Shown here: piece after piece, positions 5,259 to 62,636 of the stretch
How the letters are laid out: every line of letters begins with the position of its first letter
Numbering within the stretch: the stretch's first letter is position 1
NCBI GenBank assembly: GCA_964412225.1
Contig: CAYPNB010000006.1
Location: 25,378 to 89,377, forward strand
DNA length: 64,000 nucleotides
Source: an uncultured bacterium
Lineage (GTDB): Bacteria; Hydrothermota; Tepidihabitantia; Tepidihabitantales; Tepidihabitantaceae
Direction: 5' to 3'
Made by a program: the position numbers and the translations under genes
Notes under the pieces: generated by a model
The model's input: only the letters and a program-made list of their open reading frames with translations
What the model was told of the DNA's origin: nothing
The model's database searches: none

Positions 5259-5663
5259 TTATCCTCCTTTTTCGGCAATTATTTTTACCAGACATTGGCG
5301 TTCACGAGGGCCGTCAAACTCACAGAAAAATACCCCTTGCCATCTACCCAATGCCAGCCGGCCATCCGTCACCGGAATCGCCTGGCAACAACCGACAAGA
5401 ACCGATTTGATGTGGGCGTCGGCGTTACCTTCGGTGTGATGGTAATGGCGATCAGCTGGAACGAGCCGGGACAGGGTGGTGATGATATCTTCTGCTACAG
5501 CCGGGTCATAGCTCTCGTTTACCGTTACACCGGCGGTGGTGTGAGGGACATAAATAAAACAAACACCAGATGTCACACCGCTTTTCTTTACCGCTTCCTG
5601 GACTAGGACGGTGATGTCAATCAGTTCCGTCCGGCGGTGGGTTGTAACCGAGAATGAGAGCAT
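5259..5663 (-). CDS. yjbQ: YjbQ/UPF0047 family protein (secondary thiamine-phosphate synthase-like)
   Basis: 134 aa with YjbQ signature (ITVLVQEAV...GVCFIYVPHTTAGVTVNE...HIKSVLVG). Confidence 0.75.
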   Translation of the reverse strand: MLSFSVTTHRRTELIDITVLVQEAVKKSGVTSGVCFIYVPHTTAGVTVNESYDPAVAEDIITTLSRLVPADRHYHHTEGNADAHIKSVLVGCCQAIPVTDGRLALGRWQGVFFCEFDGPRERQCLVKIIAEKGG

Positions 5664-5771
5664 ACCCAGTTTCTATCTTATCTGCCTATTTGCTTCTGTC
5701 AACAGAGTGCGCCGGTTGACCGGTAAGGAAGATTCAGATATTATTAATCAATCAAACAAAGGAGTTAACCG

Positions 5772-6674
5772 ATGAAAATAATTATTACCGACCCGATTGC
5801 ACCGGAAGGTGTGCAGATGTTACGCGAAGCCGGATTTACCGTTGATGAGAAACCGGGGTTAACGCCGGCCGAACTGCTTCAGGTGATTCCCGAATATGAT
5901 GCCATCATTGTCCGCAGCGCCACCAAGGTGACCGCGGAGGTGATTGCCGCCGGCAAGAACCTGAAGGTAATCGGCCGGGCGGGTGTTGGTCTGGACAATG
6001 TGGACAAAAAGGCCGCGGATGCGCGGGGGATTAAGGTGGTTAATACACCCGAGGCAACGTCAATATCGGTTGCCGAACTGGCGCTGGGGATGATGTTCGC
6101 CTGTGCCCGTTCTATTCCGCAGGCAACCGCTTCGTTGCGTGCCGGCAAATGGGAGAAGAAGGCTTTCCACGGAATAGAGCTTTACGGTAAGACGCTGGGT
6201 ATTATTGGTTCAGGAAGGATTGGTACGGAACTGGCGAAGCGGGCGCTGGCACTGGGGATGAAGGTGCTGGTTTACGACCTGCCCGGGGTGAAACCGGCAT
6301 ATGGCGAATCGGTTGCACTGGATGAGCTTCTTGCCCGAGCCGATTTCATATCGTTACATATTCCGAAGACCCCCGAGACCTATCACATTCTGAACCGGGA
6401 TGCCTTTGCCAAAATGAAGAAAGGCGTGGTTATTGTCAACTGTGCCCGGGGTGGGGTGATTGATGAGGCGGCTTTGTTTGATGCGCTTCAGTCCGGACTG
6501 GTGGCAGCGGCAGCGCTGGATGTGTTTGAGAAGGAGCCGCTGGATGACTTCCGGCTTTTCTCGCTTCCCCAGGTTATTGGAACACCCCACATTGGTGCTC
6601 AGACCAAAGAGGGTCAGCGCCGGGCAGGGGTCCAGATTGCGGAAAAGGTTCGGGATGCCTTAAAGGAGTCATAA
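5772..6674 (+). CDS. serA: D-3-phosphoglycerate dehydrogenase (short form, 2-hydroxyacid dehydrogenase family)
   Basis: NAD-binding GxGxxG (GIIGSGRIGTELAKRA) and D-isomer 2-hydroxyacid dehydrogenase catalytic region. 300 aa. Confidence 0.8.
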   Translation: MKIIITDPIAPEGVQMLREAGFTVDEKPGLTPAELLQVIPEYDAIIVRSATKVTAEVIAAGKNLKVIGRAGVGLDNVDKKAADARGIKVVNTPEATSISVAELALGMMFACARSIPQATASLRAGKWEKKAFHGIELYGKTLGIIGSGRIGTELAKRALALGMKVLVYDLPGVKPAYGESVALDELLARADFISLHIPKTPETYHILNRDAFAKMKKGVVIVNCARGGVIDEAALFDALQSGLVAAAALDVFEKEPLDDFRLFSLPQVIGTPHIGAQTKEGQRRAGVQIAEKVRDALKES

Positions 6675-17970: not shown

Positions 17971-18347
17971 GAAGGCGGGTCGGACGGTCGCCCCGTTTTT
18001 GCGGGGAGGAAAGTCCGGGCACCAAAGGGCAGGACACTCGTTAATAGCGAGGCTGTCCGTAGCGGACAGACGGAAAGTGTCACAGAAACTACACCGCCCT
18101 ATTTGGGGTAAGGGTGAAATAGTGCGGTAAGAGCGCACTATCCGTGGTGGTGACATCACGGATGGATAAACCCTGTCCGGTGCAAGACCAAGCAGGGAGT
18201 TGTGAGTGCTGTTTTTGCACTCCCGGACTGGCCCGGTCCGCATTGGCTCCCGGGTAGGTCGCTTGAGGCCGGCGGGCAACCGCTGGTCCCAGATAAATGA
18301 CCGTCGCCCTGAAAAGGGAACAGAACCCGGCTTACAGACCCGCCTTC
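17971..18347 (+). ncRNA. rnpB: RNase P RNA (bacterial type A)
   Basis: Universally conserved P4 strands GGAAAGUCCGGGC and ACAGAACCCGGCUUA. P1 pairing (aaggcgggtc...gacccgcctt). ~377 nt. Overlaps only spurious ORFs in the track. Confidence 0.85.
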
Positions 18348-18405
18348 ATTGTTAATTATTCCCCTGTTTGACAGGAGAGAAATCGTTGATAAATTGAAAG
18401 ACAGT

Positions 18406-31399: not shown

Positions 31400-31409
31400 A
31401 AAATTTGAA

Positions 31410-31482
31410 TGGGCCCTAGTGGACTTGAACCACTGGCCCCTGCGTTATCAGCACAGTGCTCTACCACCTGAGCTAAGGGCCC
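31410..31482 (-). tRNA. tRNA-Ile (anticodon GAT)
   Basis: The reverse complement GGGCCCTTAGCTCAGGTGGTAGAGCACTGTGCTGATAACGCAGGGGCCAGTGGTTCAAGTCCACTAGGGCCCA folds as a cloverleaf with anticodon loop CTGATAA. Confidence 0.85.
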
Positions 31483-31512
31483 AACAGATTTAATCATATT
31501 ATAAAACTTTAG

Positions 31513-56345: not shown

Positions 56346-56747
56346 TTGATGCTATTAAATGTAAAAGAGTCGGGCCGGTTTCACGGTCATATCGGTCCCT
56401 GGCTGATTTTGGGTTGGCGCTGTGGCCGATATGGGGCACGAAAACTGAAGGGTTCACCGTTTGAACTTTTGGTTCTGGTGGAGTGTCCGGCAAAACCGCC
56501 GGCAAGCTGCTTTATTGACGGCATTCAGACCGGCTCGGGGTGTACGATGGGTAAGGGAAACATCAGCCATCGCCGGCGCAATGGCGTCTGCCGGGCTTTC
56601 TTTCAGCACCGGGGAAATGGCCGGAGATTGTTAATTCAGGTCCGGCCGGAGTTGATTCCCGGATTGCATTTAATCCCTCCGGAAAAGGTAAAAAGGACCC
56701 CCCTGCAAAGTTTTGTTGGGATTCAGAAAATTGGCGCGGGATGGTGA
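56346..56747 (+). CDS. FmdE/FwdE-domain family protein
   Basis: FHGHIGPWLILGWR motif resembling the FmdE HGH.CPG signature. 133 aa. Confidence 0.45.
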   Translation: MMLLNVKESGRFHGHIGPWLILGWRCGRYGARKLKGSPFELLVLVECPAKPPASCFIDGIQTGSGCTMGKGNISHRRRNGVCRAFFQHRGNGRRLLIQVRPELIPGLHLIPPEKVKRTPLQSFVGIQKIGAGW

Positions 56748-56806
56748 ATCCTGAAAATACGGTGGTAGTCTAAATAGGTGAGGAAAGTTAAAAGGAGGTA
56801 AGGCAT

Positions 56807-57256
56807 ATGGCAAAGCACATAACAACATGGGATCCATTCCGGGAGGTATCTTCGATTCGGGATGAACTGGACCGGTTTTTTGACTCGCTGTTTGGCCGAT
56901 TCCCGCGCGAGCGAGGCGAGACTTTCTGGGCACCGCCGATAGACATTGAAGAGACCGATGAAGCGATTGTTATCCGGGCCGAACTACCGGGGATGAACAA
57001 AGAGGATATTAAGGTGAATCTTTCGGGAGATACGCTGACCATTTCTGGTGAGAGGAAACAGGAGGCCGAAAAGAAGGGCAGGACCTACTACCGGATTGAG
57101 CGCGCCTACGGCAAGTTCCAGCGGACAATTACCCTGCCGGCTGAGGTAGAAGGAGAAAAGGCGAAGGCGTCCTACAAGGCGGGGGTTCTGGAACTGGTCC
57201 TCCCGAAATCGGAGAAAGCCAAGGCGAAAGAGATTACCATCGTCGCCGAGGACTAA
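56807..57256 (+). CDS. Small heat shock protein (Hsp20/alpha-crystallin family)
   Basis: Alpha-crystallin domain (...IVIRAELPGMNKEDIKVNLSGDTLTISGER...GVLELVLPK). AAAGGAGG SD upstream. Confidence 0.9.
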   Translation: MAKHITTWDPFREVSSIRDELDRFFDSLFGRFPRERGETFWAPPIDIEETDEAIVIRAELPGMNKEDIKVNLSGDTLTISGERKQEAEKKGRTYYRIERAYGKFQRTITLPAEVEGEKAKASYKAGVLELVLPKSEKAKAKEITIVAED

Positions 57257-57386: not shown

Positions 57387-57575
57387 ATGATTAATAGAAT
57401 GTGGAGAGATTTTTTCTTCTTACGGACTGGTGGTCATCGGTTGGCATTGAGTAAAGTCGGTCTGACGATTTTTGCCGGGCTGGGGTTGCTTTCCTGTTCG
57501 GATGCGCCGCAGATTGTCCGGGAGGCAAACCGGATAGTCCTGGTGGAAATTTTTTCCACGTTGCCCGATGAATGA
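57387..57575 (+). CDS. Lipoprotein N-terminal part ending at in-frame TGA (possible selenoprotein N-terminus; see findings)
   Basis: Lipoprotein signal (RLALSKVGLTIFAGLGLLSC, lipobox LLSC), then IVLVEIFSTLPDE, then TGA at 57573-57575. Confidence 0.45.
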   Translation: MINRMWRDFFFLRTGGHRLALSKVGLTIFAGLGLLSCSDAPQIVREANRIVLVEIFSTLPDE

Positions 57576-57593
57576 GCCTACTGTGCGTCTGCG

Positions 57594-58223
57594 GTGCAGG
57601 CGCTGGATAGTTTGATTGTGGATTACCAGGATTCCCTTGCCGGTGTCGTTTACTATTCTGCCGAGATGCACCCGGAGATGGAGGGGCGGGGCGGTCGGGG
57701 AAGGGCAAGATGGTATGGCGTGGGAATGGAGTTGCCACTCGCATTTTTTGATGGCACCCGGCGGGCACCCCAGATTACGATCAGAGACTCTTTTTACCCG
57801 ATTTACCAGTCTCTGGTTGATGCCAGCCGGGCCCAGAAGACGGTGCTGGAGATGGAGCTGGACAGTGTTCAGACACGAATTGAATCGGGTTATTTGCATG
57901 TGGGGGTACACATTACTTCCACCGATTCGGTGGTTGACACGATGAGCACCCTGCGGCTGGTGGCGGTGGTTTTTGAGGACAGTGTGCCTTATTACTCTTT
58001 TCTGAGGGGGGAGACAACCTATGCCCGGATGGTAGTGCGGGAGGTTATTGGGGATAGTCTGGGGGTCCCTCTGCAGTTGAGGTTTGGGCAGGATTTTGAC
58101 ACGGTCCTTACCGCCCCGGTTACCGGCTATAGTTTCGGTCGGGTCGGTGTGGCGGTTTCGGTTCAGGAGGTTGCGAACCGGGCGGTGTTGCAGTCGGTAA
58201 TCAGGAGAAGAGTTGGCAATTAA
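57594..58223 (+). CDS. Hypothetical protein (same frame as 57387-57575; possibly the downstream part of a TGA-interrupted selenoprotein)
   Basis: GTG start with no SD, only 18 nt after the TGA and in the same reading frame. The antisense ORF 57420-58397 is R/H/P-rich and judged spurious. Confidence 0.45.
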   Translation: MQALDSLIVDYQDSLAGVVYYSAEMHPEMEGRGGRGRARWYGVGMELPLAFFDGTRRAPQITIRDSFYPIYQSLVDASRAQKTVLEMELDSVQTRIESGYLHVGVHITSTDSVVDTMSTLRLVAVVFEDSVPYYSFLRGETTYARMVVREVIGDSLGVPLQLRFGQDFDTVLTAPVTGYSFGRVGVAVSVQEVANRAVLQSVIRRRVGN

Positions 58224-58233
58224 GGAGGTTTTT

Positions 58234-58869
58234 ATGAAGGTGAACCGGAATGGTTTTTGCCGTCTCCTTGCGGGGGGATGGGCAGTGGCGGTATCCCTGA
58301 TCGTCTTTGTCTCAGGGAGGGCGCTGGCGGCAGAGGAGAAACCGAAGGGGAAAACCAGGTATGAAATGGCGCCCGATTTTACCCTCCGCGATGTCAACGG
58401 TGAGGAGGTAACACTTTCCGAACTGTTGAAAAACGGTCCGGTTTATCTGGAGACGTGGGATTTACCCTGCGTTAACTGTGTTGCGGAACTGGATGCGCTC
58501 TTACCGGTTTATGACTCGCTGAAGTCGCGGGGCTTGCAGATCGTTGCCCTTTCCGTTGACAAACCTTCCGATGAGGCACGGGTAAAGGCGTTTGTGAAAG
58601 CCAAGAAGTGGCCCTACATCGTGCTCCTTGACCAGCAGCAAAAGGTGAAAAAGGCTTACAACGTCATCATCAAGCCAACCGCGGTTTTAATCAATATGAA
58701 GGGCGAGATTGTCTATACCCATATCGGATATAAAAAGGGTGACGAAAAGCGGATTGCCGAGGAGATGAAAAAGTGGTTGCCCGAGAAACCGGTTGACGAT
58801 ACGCCGGTAGAGAATGACAGGGGAGAAGAACCGGAAGGGGAACAGGAGAAAGGTAAAGGGCAGCAGTGA
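58234..58869 (+). CDS. TlpA/ResA-like thiol-disulfide oxidoreductase (thioredoxin fold, CxxC), signal-anchored
   Basis: Perfect AAGGAGG SD 6 nt before the ATG at 58234. N-terminal signal/TM. Redox motif WDLPCVNC with APDFTL... upstream (TlpA/AhpC-TSA family pattern). Confidence 0.75.
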   Translation: MKVNRNGFCRLLAGGWAVAVSLIVFVSGRALAAEEKPKGKTRYEMAPDFTLRDVNGEEVTLSELLKNGPVYLETWDLPCVNCVAELDALLPVYDSLKSRGLQIVALSVDKPSDEARVKAFVKAKKWPYIVLLDQQQKVKKAYNVIIKPTAVLINMKGEIVYTHIGYKKGDEKRIAEEMKKWLPEKPVDDTPVENDRGEEPEGEQEKGKGQQ

Positions 58870-60356
58870 AGGGGACCGGAGAGAGGCGGCCGGGGTTATT
58901 TGTTCTGGGCGTTGTTTTTCCCCTGTTTTTGACTGCGGCAGAATTCACAATCCAGGGCTCCAACCGGGCGGAGTTCTGGGGATATCAGAAGGACTGGGCA
59001 ACCCATTTTGAAGACAAACTGGAGATAATTGCCCGCTACGGTGATTTTGAGGGGGAGTTCGGGGCGCTCGTTTTTGAACCGTCAAAGCATGGACCGAGTG
59101 AGCGGAAGCCGGTGCGGTTGCTGGATTACACCATTGGTTATAACCCCCGGGAGGTGGAGCTGCGGCTGGGAAGGTTTTTCGCCACCTTCGGGCAGGGGCT
59201 GGCGCTGCGGACCTATTCTGATGACGATTTTCGGCATTACAAAAGCCTGCACGGGCTGCTGGGCAGGTTTAATTTACCGTTGCGAACACAGGTGACCCTT
59301 TTGGGGGGCAGGTTGCGGGATGTTTTCTTTCAGGAGAACACCTACAAGACGATGAACGAACTGGATACCACCGACCAGGTGCTGGGAGCAGACTTGACCG
59401 CGCAACCGGTGCGATTTCTTTCGTTGGGGGGGAGGTATGTGCGGATTAACCGGGAGGTGGATCCGACCGCAAAGGCGTTTACTGAGATTTTTGGCGGTGA
59501 TATCGGGCTGGATTTCGGACCGGTGGCGGTCTCCGGTGAGTTGTGCTGGCGGCTCGGTACAAAGCCCGGGATTGGCGGCAGGGAGAAAGGTTTTGGTGGA
59601 GTGGCGAATGTCATTTTGACCCTTGCCGGGTTTTCTGTTCTTGGGCAATACGTTGACTACACCCGTTTGGGTTTTCCGCCCGGCGTTTATCATTATAACG
59701 ACCCGCCGACACCGATTAAGTCCGGGGTGGCGATAAACCGGGGTGTTGATGAGCGCGGTTTCGGAGTCCAGGTTTCTGGAATGCCGACGGCCGCGGTTTA
59801 TCTTGAGGGGGATCTGGGTCGGTTGTTTGTTCATGACGATACAAGTGCCGGGGTTCTGGAAGGCGAAGTTAAGGGGAGATATACTCCTGGCGGCAACTGG
59901 ACATTAGAGACAAAGTTTAACCATATGGAGCAGAAGAACATTGAACTGGGCACCTATCGCCGGATCAACGACCGTCCGGGTCTACTTTTTAATTATCTGG
60001 CAGGTGGACATACCTTTGCCCTGGAGGCAGAAATGGGCTGGGTCGAGGAATGGCCTTCAGATACCACCCACGGGGCGGTGTGGCGGTATCACGAGCCGGT
60101 GATTGCCTTCAGTTACGGTTACGGTGAAAGGTGGCTTTTTACTATCGGCTGGCAGGGTGTGGACCGGGATTCGCTAAAGCGTTATGACAATCAACGGTCC
60201 TGGCCGATGTTTGAGACGGTCTGGAACATAAGCGAGAGGAACGTTTTGCGGGTGCGGGTTGGTGCGGAGAAGGGGGGGTATACCTGCTCGGGTGGTGTAT
60301 GCCGTTATGAGGCGCCATTTCAGGGTGTGAAGTTACAGTTGATCAGTCGGATATAG
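58866..60356 (+). CDS. Hypothetical secreted protein, predicted outer-membrane beta-barrel
   Basis: N-terminal signal peptide. 496 aa with alternating aromatic/Gly-rich beta-strand-like segments. 4-nt overlap with the TlpA-like gene. Confidence 0.4.
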   Translation: MKGTGERRPGLFVLGVVFPLFLTAAEFTIQGSNRAEFWGYQKDWATHFEDKLEIIARYGDFEGEFGALVFEPSKHGPSERKPVRLLDYTIGYNPREVELRLGRFFATFGQGLALRTYSDDDFRHYKSLHGLLGRFNLPLRTQVTLLGGRLRDVFFQENTYKTMNELDTTDQVLGADLTAQPVRFLSLGGRYVRINREVDPTAKAFTEIFGGDIGLDFGPVAVSGELCWRLGTKPGIGGREKGFGGVANVILTLAGFSVLGQYVDYTRLGFPPGVYHYNDPPTPIKSGVAINRGVDERGFGVQVSGMPTAAVYLEGDLGRLFVHDDTSAGVLEGEVKGRYTPGGNWTLETKFNHMEQKNIELGTYRRINDRPGLLFNYLAGGHTFALEAEMGWVEEWPSDTTHGAVWRYHEPVIAFSYGYGERWLFTIGWQGVDRDSLKRYDNQRSWPMFETVWNISERNVLRVRVGAEKGGYTCSGGVCRYEAPFQGVKLQLISRI

Positions 60357-60506: not shown

Positions 60507-61787
60507 ATGAAGAAACGGAAAATCGCCCCTTATCGCATCGGTCAGATAATCGGAACGGTGGTACTCAATGCCTATATCCTTGCCTATATTCAGGGAAAGA
60601 TTCTTTATTCTGGTTTTCTGAAGAGCATCCCGGAGCCGGTGCTCAACTGTTATGGCGGTCCGCTTTCGGTTTTCGCCTGTCCGCTTGGCTCATTCCAGCA
60701 GATTCTCGCCCAGCAGGGGTTGGCGTTCTATTTAAGGGTGCCCTGGGTTATTCTGGGGTTATTTATTGTGATTGGCGCTTTTGTCGGTAGGAGCCCCTGT
60801 GCTTGGGTGTGTCCATTCGGACTGGGGCAGGATTTACTTTATAAGATTAAACTCGGTCCGCGAGCAAAGGATAAACGGTGGATTTCCTTTGTGGTCATCG
60901 GCGTCATCGGATTGCTCGCGGTGGCGCTGCTCGCGGTTTTTGTCAAGGTTAATATTGCGAAGGCGCTCCTTTTCGGCTGGCTGCCGTTTATGGCGCTTTA
61001 CCTGTTCGGGGTATTCAAGGGGAAGATGGGACTGCCCAAGCGTTGGTTTCCGGGTGGAACGCTGGTGGGAATCGGTCTGGGGTTATTGATCGGCTGGCGT
61101 TATGATGTGAATCTGGGGATAGCCAGTGGGGTGGTGGCGACCACGGGGTTGGGGTTGGTAGGACCGGTGCCAACGCTGCTGCTGGCGGTGCCGGCTGGTT
61201 TTATCCTGGCGCTTTTTGGTAAAGGTGCTCATCTCGGACCTTTTGCCGGTGCTGAACTGGGGCTGCTGTTTGTCGTTTTTGCCGTTGTGGTGGTACTTTT
61301 GGTTGACCACTGGCTGAAACTCGCGCTGCCGGCGACGGGTTTGAAGTATCTATTTTTTGTCCTGGTGGCGGGGGTGCTGGCGTTCTTCACCGCCGAGCCC
61401 TGGTTTTGCAAACTGTGTCCGCAGGGAACCCTGGAGGCGGGTATTCCGCTCGTTCTCTGGGATCCGGTTCAGGGTTTGCGCAGTCTGGTGGGCTGGCTGT
61501 TTTACCTGAAGGTGGCGATACTTTTATTTGTTCTCTGGGCGGCAATGGTTATCAAACGGCCTTTCTGTCGGGTGGTTTGTCCAATTGGCGCAATTTATGC
61601 CCTTTTCAACAGGGTCAGCCTTTTGCGGCTTAAACTGGACCGGGAGAGTTGCAACGAATGCCAGTTGTGTCGCCGGGTCTGTCCAATGGACATTGAGCCT
61701 TACCAGGAGCCGAATCAAATAGACTGTATTCGTTGTTTTGAGTGTGTCTGGCATTGTCCGAAATCCAGTCTCAAAATTTCTGTCTGA
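60507..61787 (+). CDS. NapH/MauN/FixG-like integral membrane iron-sulfur protein with C-terminal 2x[4Fe-4S] ferredoxin motifs
   Basis: Multiple TM helices with CX3CP motifs (CAWVCP; CRVVCP), plus C-terminal CNECQLCRRVCP and CIRCFECVWHCP. Confidence 0.7.
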   Translation: MKKRKIAPYRIGQIIGTVVLNAYILAYIQGKILYSGFLKSIPEPVLNCYGGPLSVFACPLGSFQQILAQQGLAFYLRVPWVILGLFIVIGAFVGRSPCAWVCPFGLGQDLLYKIKLGPRAKDKRWISFVVIGVIGLLAVALLAVFVKVNIAKALLFGWLPFMALYLFGVFKGKMGLPKRWFPGGTLVGIGLGLLIGWRYDVNLGIASGVVATTGLGLVGPVPTLLLAVPAGFILALFGKGAHLGPFAGAELGLLFVVFAVVVVLLVDHWLKLALPATGLKYLFFVLVAGVLAFFTAEPWFCKLCPQGTLEAGIPLVLWDPVQGLRSLVGWLFYLKVAILLFVLWAAMVIKRPFCRVVCPIGAIYALFNRVSLLRLKLDRESCNECQLCRRVCPMDIEPYQEPNQIDCIRCFECVWHCPKSSLKISV

Positions 61788-61793
61788 AAAGCG

Positions 61794-62636
61794 GTGCGGA
61801 AACCGGAATGGCTGAAGGTGCAGTTACCCGGAGGCAAGGGGTTTAATCGGGTCAACGCAATTTTACTCCGGCACCGGCTGAATACGGTATGCAGCAGCGC
61901 CCGCTGTCCCAATATCGCCGAGTGTTGGAGTTCCGGGACCACAACGATAATGATTCTCGGCAATGTCTGTACCCGTGCCTGTCGCTTTTGTGCGGTGCGG
62001 ACCGGCAATCCGCAGGGCAAAACGGAGGTGGATGAGCCAGAAAGGGTGGCGCTGGCGGTTAAGGAACTGGGGGTTAGCTATCTGGTTCTTACATCGGTTG
62101 ACCGGGATGATCTGGCAGATTTCGGTGCCGGGCATTTTGCCCGAACAGTTCAGGTGGTGAAGGAGAGAAACCCCGGGGTGAAGGTTGAGGTTTTGGTGCC
62201 CGATTTTGGTGGACAGGAGGATTTGATAGCCGCGGTGCTGGCAGCTGGACCGGATGTATTCGGACATAATCTGGAGACGGTTGAACGTTTGACCCCCCTG
62301 GTGCGGGACCGGCGGGCAGGTTACCGGCTTTCCTTAACGGTTCTGGAGAAGGCAAAGAAAATTGCCCCTGCGGTGATAACCAAGAGCGGGTTGATGCTGG
62401 GGTTGGGGGAGACGCTGACAGAGGTCTTTGCCACCCTGGGAGATTTGCGCGCGGTGGGATGCGATGTGGTTACAGTTGGGCAGTACCTGCAGCCGAGCCG
62501 AGGGTGTCTGGATGTGGTGCGTTTCTGGACCCCCGCGGAGTTTGCCGAGATTAAAGCCCGGGCCGAGGTGATGGGGTTCCGGCAGGTTCAGGCAGGACCG
62601 CTGGTGCGCAGTTCTTATCGGGCGGCAGGAGATTAG
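61794..62636 (+). CDS. lipA: Lipoyl synthase
   Basis: N-terminal auxiliary cluster Cys (CSSARCPNIAECW) and radical SAM CTRACRFC. GTG start. Confidence 0.9.
   Translation: MRKPEWLKVQLPGGKGFNRVNAILLRHRLNTVCSSARCPNIAECWSSGTTTIMILGNVCTRACRFCAVRTGNPQGKTEVDEPERVALAVKELGVSYLVLTSVDRDDLADFGAGHFARTVQVVKERNPGVKVEVLVPDFGGQEDLIAAVLAAGPDVFGHNLETVERLTPLVRDRRAGYRLSLTVLEKAKKIAPAVITKSGLMLGLGETLTEVFATLGDLRAVGCDVVTVGQYLQPSRGCLDVVRFWTPAEFAEIKARAEVMGFRQVQAGPLVRSSYRAAGD

Follow-up and report, generated by a model that had tools for sequence, protein, structure and literature searches.

A probable selenoprotein gene for a thioredoxin-like lipoprotein of candidate division WOR-3, with a conserved in-frame TGA and a SECIS-like hairpin

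The window analysed in this study is a 64,000-nucleotide (nt) stretch of contig CAYPNB010000006.1 from an uncultured bacterium. Within it, positions 57387-58223 carry a reading frame that contains an in-frame TGA codon. We consider it highly probable (about 0.88) that this locus is a genuine selenoprotein gene, namely one gene encoding a cell-envelope thioredoxin-like lipoprotein into which selenocysteine (Sec) is inserted at UGA. A preliminary description, made from the letters of the window alone, had proposed a Sec-containing thioredoxin-like lipoprotein encoded by a single gene; the comparative data presented below support that proposal.

A single gene across a conserved TGA codon

As the preliminary description had noted, two open reading frames (ORFs), 57387-57575 (starting with ATG) and 57594-58223 (starting with GTG), lie in one frame and are split by a single TGA (57573-57575) plus 18 nt. 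The read-through product is ...RIVLVEIFSTLPDE-U-AYC-ASAVQALDSL..., the peptide across the recoded site reads ...IFSTLPDE-U-AYCASAVQALDSL..., and the active-site motif is Sec63-Ala-Tyr-Cys66, the U-x-x-C that had been predicted. The features of the locus, which include a hairpin resembling a selenocysteine insertion sequence (SECIS), are as follows.

57387-58223, + strand: complete candidate selenoprotein gene, 278 codons from ATG 57387; stop TAA 58221-58223; true start possibly TTG 57441
57441-57497, + strand: probable lipoprotein signal peptide MALSKVGLTIFAGLGLLS-C, from the alternative TTG start; lipobox Cys is TGT 57495-57497
57573-57575, + strand: in-frame TGA, the probable selenocysteine codon (Sec63), first residue of the U-x-x-C redox motif
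57582-57584, + strand: TGT, Cys66, resolving cysteine of U-x-x-C; alignment column C66 is invariant
57585-57603, + strand: SECIS-like hairpin; 8-bp stem 57585-57592 / 57596-57603, 3-nt loop GGU 57593-57595
57576-58220, + strand: remainder of the thioredoxin-like domain (helix alpha1 onward) and C-terminal Omp28-type beta-sandwich, from an AlphaFold2 (AF2) model and PDB matches

Homologs were collected by two protein database searches, which yielded about 45 homologous clusters. Except for two aberrant entries, one distant fragment (P0046) and one full-length protein (P0045), all of these clusters were fragments of 170-209 amino acids (aa), and their called starts were inconsistent, ranging from +7 to about +45 codons past the TGA. 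Such varying starts downstream of a TGA are typical of selenoprotein genes truncated by gene callers. Homologous DNA was then gathered from the encoding contigs, from one genome per species and from JGI metagenomes, with loci drawn from NCBI, JGI, ENA and Logan. The homologous codon was TGA in 58 of the 58 loci that covered the site, and neither a sense codon nor TAA or TAG was found in any of them. These loci span 34-98% identity, and the named host genomes almost all belong to candidate division WOR-3. Codon-position entropies (positions 1/2/3) were 0.50/0.38/1.40 from the lipobox Cys to the TGA, and 0.90/0.71/1.50 downstream of the TGA; this pattern indicates that both sides of the TGA are coding in the same frame and are under purifying selection. 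Thus, rather than ending or showing a gap at the TGA, the homologs retained both the codon and the coding sequence around it.

Among the database proteins, P0045 (251 aa, 30% identity) is the only full-length relative. Its sequence contains ...FFTWQR-C-AYC-PYAARALDSL...; a TGC (Cys) codon lies exactly at the site of the TGA, yielding CxxC. The Cys homolog that the preliminary description had suggested looking for is therefore present, with its Cys aligned to the TGA. Moreover, the corresponding column of the superfamily alignment (C63) is at least 90% Cys.

TGA was the ordinary stop for 16 of the 46 long ORFs of the window, which indicates that the genetic code is standard and that recoding is local, as had been argued previously. 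The real stop of this same gene is also TGA in nine orthologs. Other TGA-joined ORF pairs in the window were without a redox motif and resembled chance or adjacent genes. A 325-aa ORF lies antisense to the gene (57420-58397, - strand); it was rejected as a gene, being a low-complexity, P/R-rich shadow ORF of the GC-rich strand.

At the N-terminus, where a lipoprotein signal peptide had been proposed, the lipobox of the window protein is L-L-S-C, which matches the pattern [LVI][ASTVIL][GAS]C as judged by pattern inspection. The lipobox Cys (C37) is invariant in the alignments, and 18-21 residues precede it in the orthologs; the mature protein would be lipidated at this residue. The true start codon may be TTG 57441. 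The sequence GGTGG (57429-57433) lies upstream of it, and starting there gives an 18-residue signal peptide as in the orthologs. The claim that the gene has no Shine-Dalgarno sequence was therefore only partly right, given that GGTGG precedes this alternative start.

Several further observations were made among the homologs. A subgroup of paralogs has one extra codon, giving U-P-A-Y-C (UxxxC; L024 at 3115, L055 at 200, L056 at 10115, L058 at 655 and L059 at 450), and one of these, L024, shares a metagenome-assembled genome (MAG) with a standard copy, L023. Of the two aberrant database entries, P0015 has its signal peptide and beta1 joined to the middle of the protein, with the Sec region missing, and P0013 has a frameshifted C-terminus; both are probably assembly artefacts or decayed copies. 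Four Omp28-superfamily proteins outside the WOR-3 subfamily (P0062, P0074, P0100 and P0150) begin right after the CxxC position (...DSL...); additional Sec forms with an in-frame TGA may be hidden among them in other lineages.

A conserved SECIS-like hairpin

The arms of the hairpin at 57585-57603 are, as DNA, GCGTCTGC/GGT/GCAGGCGC, and in RNA form GCGUCUGC/GGU/GCAGGCGC. The hairpin begins 9 nt after the UGA, its apical loop lies 17 nt away from that codon, and the second ORF has its GTG "start" in the loop; its position, its G-containing loop and the placement of this GTG were all as previously described. In bSECISearch-type criteria, the apical loop lies 16-37 nt from the UGA and comprises 3-14 nt, a G is among the first two loop bases, and the upper stem has at least 4 bp. 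From its sequence, the geometry of the hairpin appears to fit the published bacterial SECIS model.

To judge covariation, the first hairpin alignment of 20 sequences was extended to 38 distinct sequences. Standard pairs occupied 97.7% of the cells of the 8-bp stem, and five of the eight stem pairs changed on both sides (C-G/A-U, U-G/G-U, C-G/U-A, G-C/A-U). The covariation score was 0.384, compared with 0.130 for shuffled alignments (0 of 500 as high) and at most 0.154 for slid partners. The covariation that had been sought in support of the hairpin thus proved strong. Some compensatory changes replaced the residues encoded by both arms (Ala...Ala versus Glu...Ser) and are therefore not due to protein constraint alone. 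The first loop base was an invariant G. Synonymous variation was also suppressed over the hairpin: the entropy of third codon positions was 0.80 at codons +1 to +10, compared with about 1.4-1.5 elsewhere. In the UxxxC paralogs, the hairpin was displaced by exactly the 3-nt insertion, and in the Cys homolog P0045 the 8-bp stem was degraded. An extended lower stem (alignment columns 17-21/44-48) was dropped from consideration, as it was 79% paired with little covariation.

Fold, operon and relation to known proteins

AF2 models were made of P0045 and of the polypeptide that follows the TGA in the window. The P0045 model (predicted local distance difference test, pLDDT, 77.5; predicted template-modelling score, pTM, 0.78) contains strand E31-37, the motif C41xxC44, helix H44-61 and strand E62-68, in the order beta1, CxxC at the start of alpha1, beta-alpha-beta-alpha, and beta-sandwich. 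The model of the window polypeptide (pLDDT 90, pTM 0.87) has its first helix from residue 2. The best PDB match of both models was HBP35 (5Y1A), with TMq 0.73 for P0045 and 0.68 for the window fragment; the Omp28 domain 2R2C also matched both, and the DUF1223 protein 2AXO matched the P0045 model. These models and the HBP35 match agree with the thioredoxin fold that had been proposed and place U or C at the N-terminus of helix alpha1. A weak Pfam Glutaredoxin match was also found at window residues 53-81.

An exhaustive phmmer search with P0045 gave 1,711 clusters (50% identity) at E<=1e-3. Representatives of this superfamily matched Pfam Omp28 (PF11551) and NF033782 (Omp28 family outer membrane lipoprotein), and some carried sorting domains of the type IX secretion system (T9SS); the CxxC of their motif, e.g., AELFTATW-C-GY-C-PYA, was near-invariant. 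When the PDB was searched with the narrow family profile, nothing useful was found, and the superfamily profile was needed. This profile placed VVLEVFTAEW-C-GY-C-PGG of HBP35, which contains Cys48 and Cys51, on the family CxxC (E 6e-8), with Sec63 aligned to Cys48, and also matched archaeal thioredoxins (1nho, 1fo5). Because Sec63 aligns with Cys48 of the HBP35 CxxC, it would take the nucleophilic position of a thioredoxin-type active site. In HBP35, the C48S/C51S substitution abolishes insulin-reducing activity (PMC2907840).

The best NCBIfam match of the read-through protein was NF045500, "Omp28-related selenoprotein" (E 2e-7; 30.7 bits against a cutoff of 200), with window residues 47-221 aligned to profile positions 37-210. 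Ordinary Cys members of the superfamily scored 22-82 bits against this model, and the window protein scored no better. Pfam Omp28 (PF11551, threshold 34.9 bits) gave no match to the window protein at E<=1, and NF033782 gave 13.2 bits, short of its threshold of 150; P0045 passed the PF11551 threshold with 41.6 bits. The tie of the window protein to Omp28 thus holds at the level of superfamily and fold only.

A Sec-containing Omp28-like family has already been catalogued: NF045500 corresponds to "Hypothetical protein GOS_C", predicted from the GOS marine metagenome and listed with the motif UxxC in Table 1 of PMC13188914. That family and the window protein share the superfamily and the UxxC motif, at an equivalent N-terminal position by profile coordinates, and in both, Sec takes the place of the initial Cys in a thioredoxin-like CxxC. 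They differ in that the NF045500 model has 377 positions whereas the window protein has about 260 aa, and in that the latter is a predicted lipoprotein, restricted to WOR-3 and encoded in a specific operon. Because it falls below the NF045500 cutoff and scores like ordinary Cys members, the window protein is best regarded as a separate, unannotated member or subfamily.

Other known proteins offered further comparisons. HBP35 of Porphyromonas gingivalis, which is located at the cell surface and binds hemin, likewise combines a thioredoxin domain with a beta-sandwich and has an aligned CxxC. It differs in using Cys where the window protein would use Sec and in being exported by the T9SS through a C-terminal sorting domain where the window protein has a lipobox; sequence identity is only 11-18%. 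The window protein had no Pfam match to Por_Secre_tail, and its chain ends with the beta-sandwich. The Omp28 family (PF11551; NF033782; PDB 2R2C) shares with it a lipoprotein nature and the same C-terminal beta-sandwich, but the window protein lies under the thresholds of both models and would carry Sec. Thioredoxin-fold bacterial selenoproteins with UxxC also include Trx, Grx, a DsbA-like protein and a thiol:disulfide interchange protein (Table 1, PMC13188914). In these proteins, too, Sec is the N-terminal UxxC residue at the start of helix alpha1, and the UGA is closely followed by a SECIS hairpin within the ORF; they belong to other families and architectures, whereas the window protein has an extra beta-sandwich and a predicted lipid anchor. 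Full-text literature searches found no paper linking Omp28 with a selenoprotein, or WOR-3 with a selenoprotein; the sole paper that they returned on WOR-3 and selenocysteine was unrelated, and two recent selenoprotein resources mention neither Omp28 nor WOR-3.

Downstream of the Sec gene, four further genes follow on the same strand.

58234-58869, + strand: exported TlpA/ResA-like thiol:disulfide oxidoreductase (WDLPCVNC), operon partner; AhpC-TSA 1.2e-20 and Redoxin 6e-18 (Pfam), ResA 6e-23 (NCBIfam)
58866-60356, + strand: DUF6029 protein with signal peptide, operon member; Pfam DUF6029 6.9e-17, conserved synteny
60507-61787, + strand: NapH/MauN-like polytopic membrane protein with 4Fe-4S motifs, operon member; Fer4_5 5e-12, napH 2.9e-16 (below cutoff), synteny
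61794-62636, + strand: lipoyl-synthase-like radical SAM protein, conserved neighbour; an ORF here, with LIAS_N/Radical_SAM in orthologous loci, synteny

The first of these, which has a signal peptide and a strong Shine-Dalgarno sequence (AAGGAGG, 58222-58228), is the TlpA-like CxxC oxidoreductase that the preliminary description had placed next to the gene, and it lies immediately 3' of the Sec gene in every UxxC locus with enough flank. In all such loci, the order Sec-lipoprotein, TlpA-like redoxin, DUF6029, NapH-like and LipA-like was kept, in loci whose Sec proteins span 34-98% identity. The redoxin, DUF6029 and NapH-like genes are missing beside the UxxxC paralogs, which stand by themselves. 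The DUF6029 protein is a putative outer-membrane beta-barrel. Conservation across loci is much higher for the redoxin (60-91% identity) than for the Sec lipoprotein (34-64%). The selenoprotein gene is directly preceded by an FmdE-domain gene and an HSP20 gene in the subclade nearest to the window (window 56346-57256; also L003, L011, L013, L015, L031, L032, L035, L036 and L054), whereas other subclades have unrelated upstream genes. The only RNA genes that Rfam and ARAGORN detected in the window were a class A RNase P RNA (17972-18350, + strand, 284 bits) and a tRNA-Ile(GAT) (31409-31483, - strand).

Selenium metabolism, competing explanations and proposed role

No SelD was found in the window or its flanks. 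In related DNA, the gene beside P0045 in contig L029 encodes a SelD that itself contains an in-frame TGA (MSKRLFDFAKAAG-U-ASKVCQEDLL). This gene spans 5612-6643, with the TGA at 5651. The hairpin that comes after this TGA, which has a GUU loop on an apical stem of 8 bp, resembles in shape that of the window gene. The Sec site of this SelD (…AAG-U-ASKVCQEDLL…) aligns with Cys in the WOR-3 SelDs P0209 and P0237. A second contig, L067, carries a Sec-type SelD (upstream of 5020) in the same core cluster as L029. When the L029 SelD was used as a probe, its closest named relatives were SelD of candidate division WOR-3, and L029 shares nine consecutive genes in the same order with the named WOR-3 genome L068 (GCA_037481955.1). 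Because L029, which is syntenic with WOR-3, and L067 carry Sec-type SelD, at least some WOR-3 bacteria appear to decode Sec. Many 321-aa SelD database entries start just past the Sec site and are probably truncated Sec forms. In three MAG submissions, the accession numbers of SelD and of the Sec-lipoprotein fragment were separated by gaps of 138 (MGC8797780/MGC8797918), 269 (MGB9742491/MGB9742222) and 125 (MGC9110987/MGC9111112). This near-consecutive numbering makes it very probable that the MAGs with the Sec gene also encode SelD, which bears, for selD, on the earlier suggestion to look for the Sec machinery in the source genome. A 90-nt "tRNA-Glu(ttc)" called by ARAGORN in L061 (3560-3649) was considered as a miscalled tRNA-Sec and rejected; Rfam found no tRNA there, and the call is probably a false positive.

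Several observations weigh against assigning Sec to this codon. Neither the window nor about 0.7 Mb of related DNA yielded selA, selB or tRNA-Sec; as these sequences are only genome fragments, this result is uninformative rather than negative. The placement of SelD in the same MAGs is an argument from accession numbering, and SelD alone also serves the selenouridine and Se-cofactor pathways. Taken as a single sequence, the hairpin is unremarkable: the + strand of the window contains 47 comparable hairpins versus about 38 in simulations, coincidences of TGA and hairpin on that strand number 5 versus about 4.6 expected, and the z-score of the 61-nt fold is only -1.2. An Rfam scan of the region (E<=10) detected no SECIS family and produced nothing above noise, and the window hairpin lacks the bulged U that is present in the fdhF SECIS of E. 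coli. The hairpin is thus not beyond chance in the window sequence alone, so its significance comes from the comparative data only; there, many of the 38 sequences are closely related, so that independent compensatory events are fewer than the cell counts suggest.

Of the competing explanations, the one that fares best, although we regard it as quite improbable, is that the UGA is read through with a standard residue (Trp, Cys or Arg) by near-cognate decoding, the hairpin acting as a generic read-through stimulator. Such an explanation would suit a simple hairpin (8 bp, 3-nt loop) that has no Rfam match, in a lineage whose genome fragments yielded no selA, selB or tRNA-Sec. However, the codon occupies the nucleophilic position of the CxxC, where homologs have Cys, as in a classic Cys/Sec exchange, and a sense Cys codon would be the simpler solution, yet it occurs in none of the 58 loci. 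In addition, a related UxxC Sec family is already catalogued (NF045500; PMC13188914), Sec-type SelD exists in the lineage, and SelD is inferred in the same MAGs.

It is still harder to credit that the TGA is a genuine stop, which would leave a 62-aa lipopeptide and a separately initiated cytoplasmic protein of about 205 aa. Every public annotation does call "hypothetical proteins" of about 170-209 aa, and in the window a GTG lies 18 nt past the TGA. Against this, TGA is retained in 58 of 58 loci, without drift to TAA or TAG; the start is not conserved (called starts lie +7 to about +45 codons past the TGA), and the codons from the TGA to those starts are highly conserved as protein. Such a split would also cut the thioredoxin fold between beta1 and alpha1 and leave a beta-sandwich without a signal peptide, and the Cys homolog P0045 is one continuous protein. 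Finally, although a lone in-frame stop in one sequence could reflect a pseudogene or a sequencing or assembly error, this is refuted by the comparative data, in which the same TGA recurs in 58 independently assembled loci (NCBI, JGI, ENA, Logan) with strong purifying selection on both sides.

If the locus is a selenoprotein gene, as we favor, it would encode an exported, lipid-anchored, two-domain protein of the Omp28/HBP35 superfamily, with an N-terminal thioredoxin-like domain followed by a beta-sandwich. The UGA at 57573-57575 would be recoded to Sec by SelB and tRNA-Sec, directed by the mRNA hairpin at 57585-57603 within the coding sequence as a bacterial-type SECIS. The mature protein would most likely be a cell-envelope thiol/selenol:disulfide oxidoreductase, with Sec, at the position of HBP35 Cys48, serving as the attacking nucleophile. 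It would work together with the co-transcribed periplasmic TlpA-like redoxin; electrons would possibly pass via the NapH-like membrane Fe-S protein, and the protein may act at the DUF6029 outer-membrane protein or close to it.

In four independent WOR-3 contigs (L029, 2303-6643; L067, 507-5877; L068, 6833-11044; L069, 6830-11032), selD lies directly downstream of a conserved trio comprising an Omp28 protein of about 580-600 aa, a CxxC paralog of the window Sec protein of about 250 aa (e.g., P0045), and a protein of about 190-250 aa without a Pfam match. L067 also has a TusA-domain gene. This linkage may tie the Omp28-like family to selenium metabolism. Because Cys-type paralogs adjoin selD in these four contigs, it is conceivable, although unlikely, that the WOR-3 Omp28-like thioredoxin-fold lipoproteins are dedicated to handling selenium (or S/Se chalcogen) at the envelope rather than being generic oxidoreductases. 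If so, the operon headed by the Sec-type paralog, with its periplasmic redoxin, putative outer-membrane barrel and NapH-like Fe-S electron conduit, would serve at the envelope to reduce or take up oxidised Se/S species and deliver selenide to SelD. The supply of selenide to SelD is a step that is still poorly defined in bacteria.

Mechanistically, the gene described here is conventional and leaves the understanding of Sec decoding unchanged. Its value lies in adding a well-supported selenoprotein subfamily, and evidence for the use of Sec, to the uncultured candidate division WOR-3, where it offers an initial view of Sec use. In public databases the gene is always mis-annotated, as a truncated "hypothetical protein", and selenoproteome censuses and MAG annotations therefore miss it; the alignment and the SECIS-like element, together with the Cys homolog, would be enough for a family model that corrects the annotation. 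The conserved operon presents a concrete envelope redox module, and the repeated linkage of selD with Omp28-like genes provides a lead on selenium handling in these bacteria.

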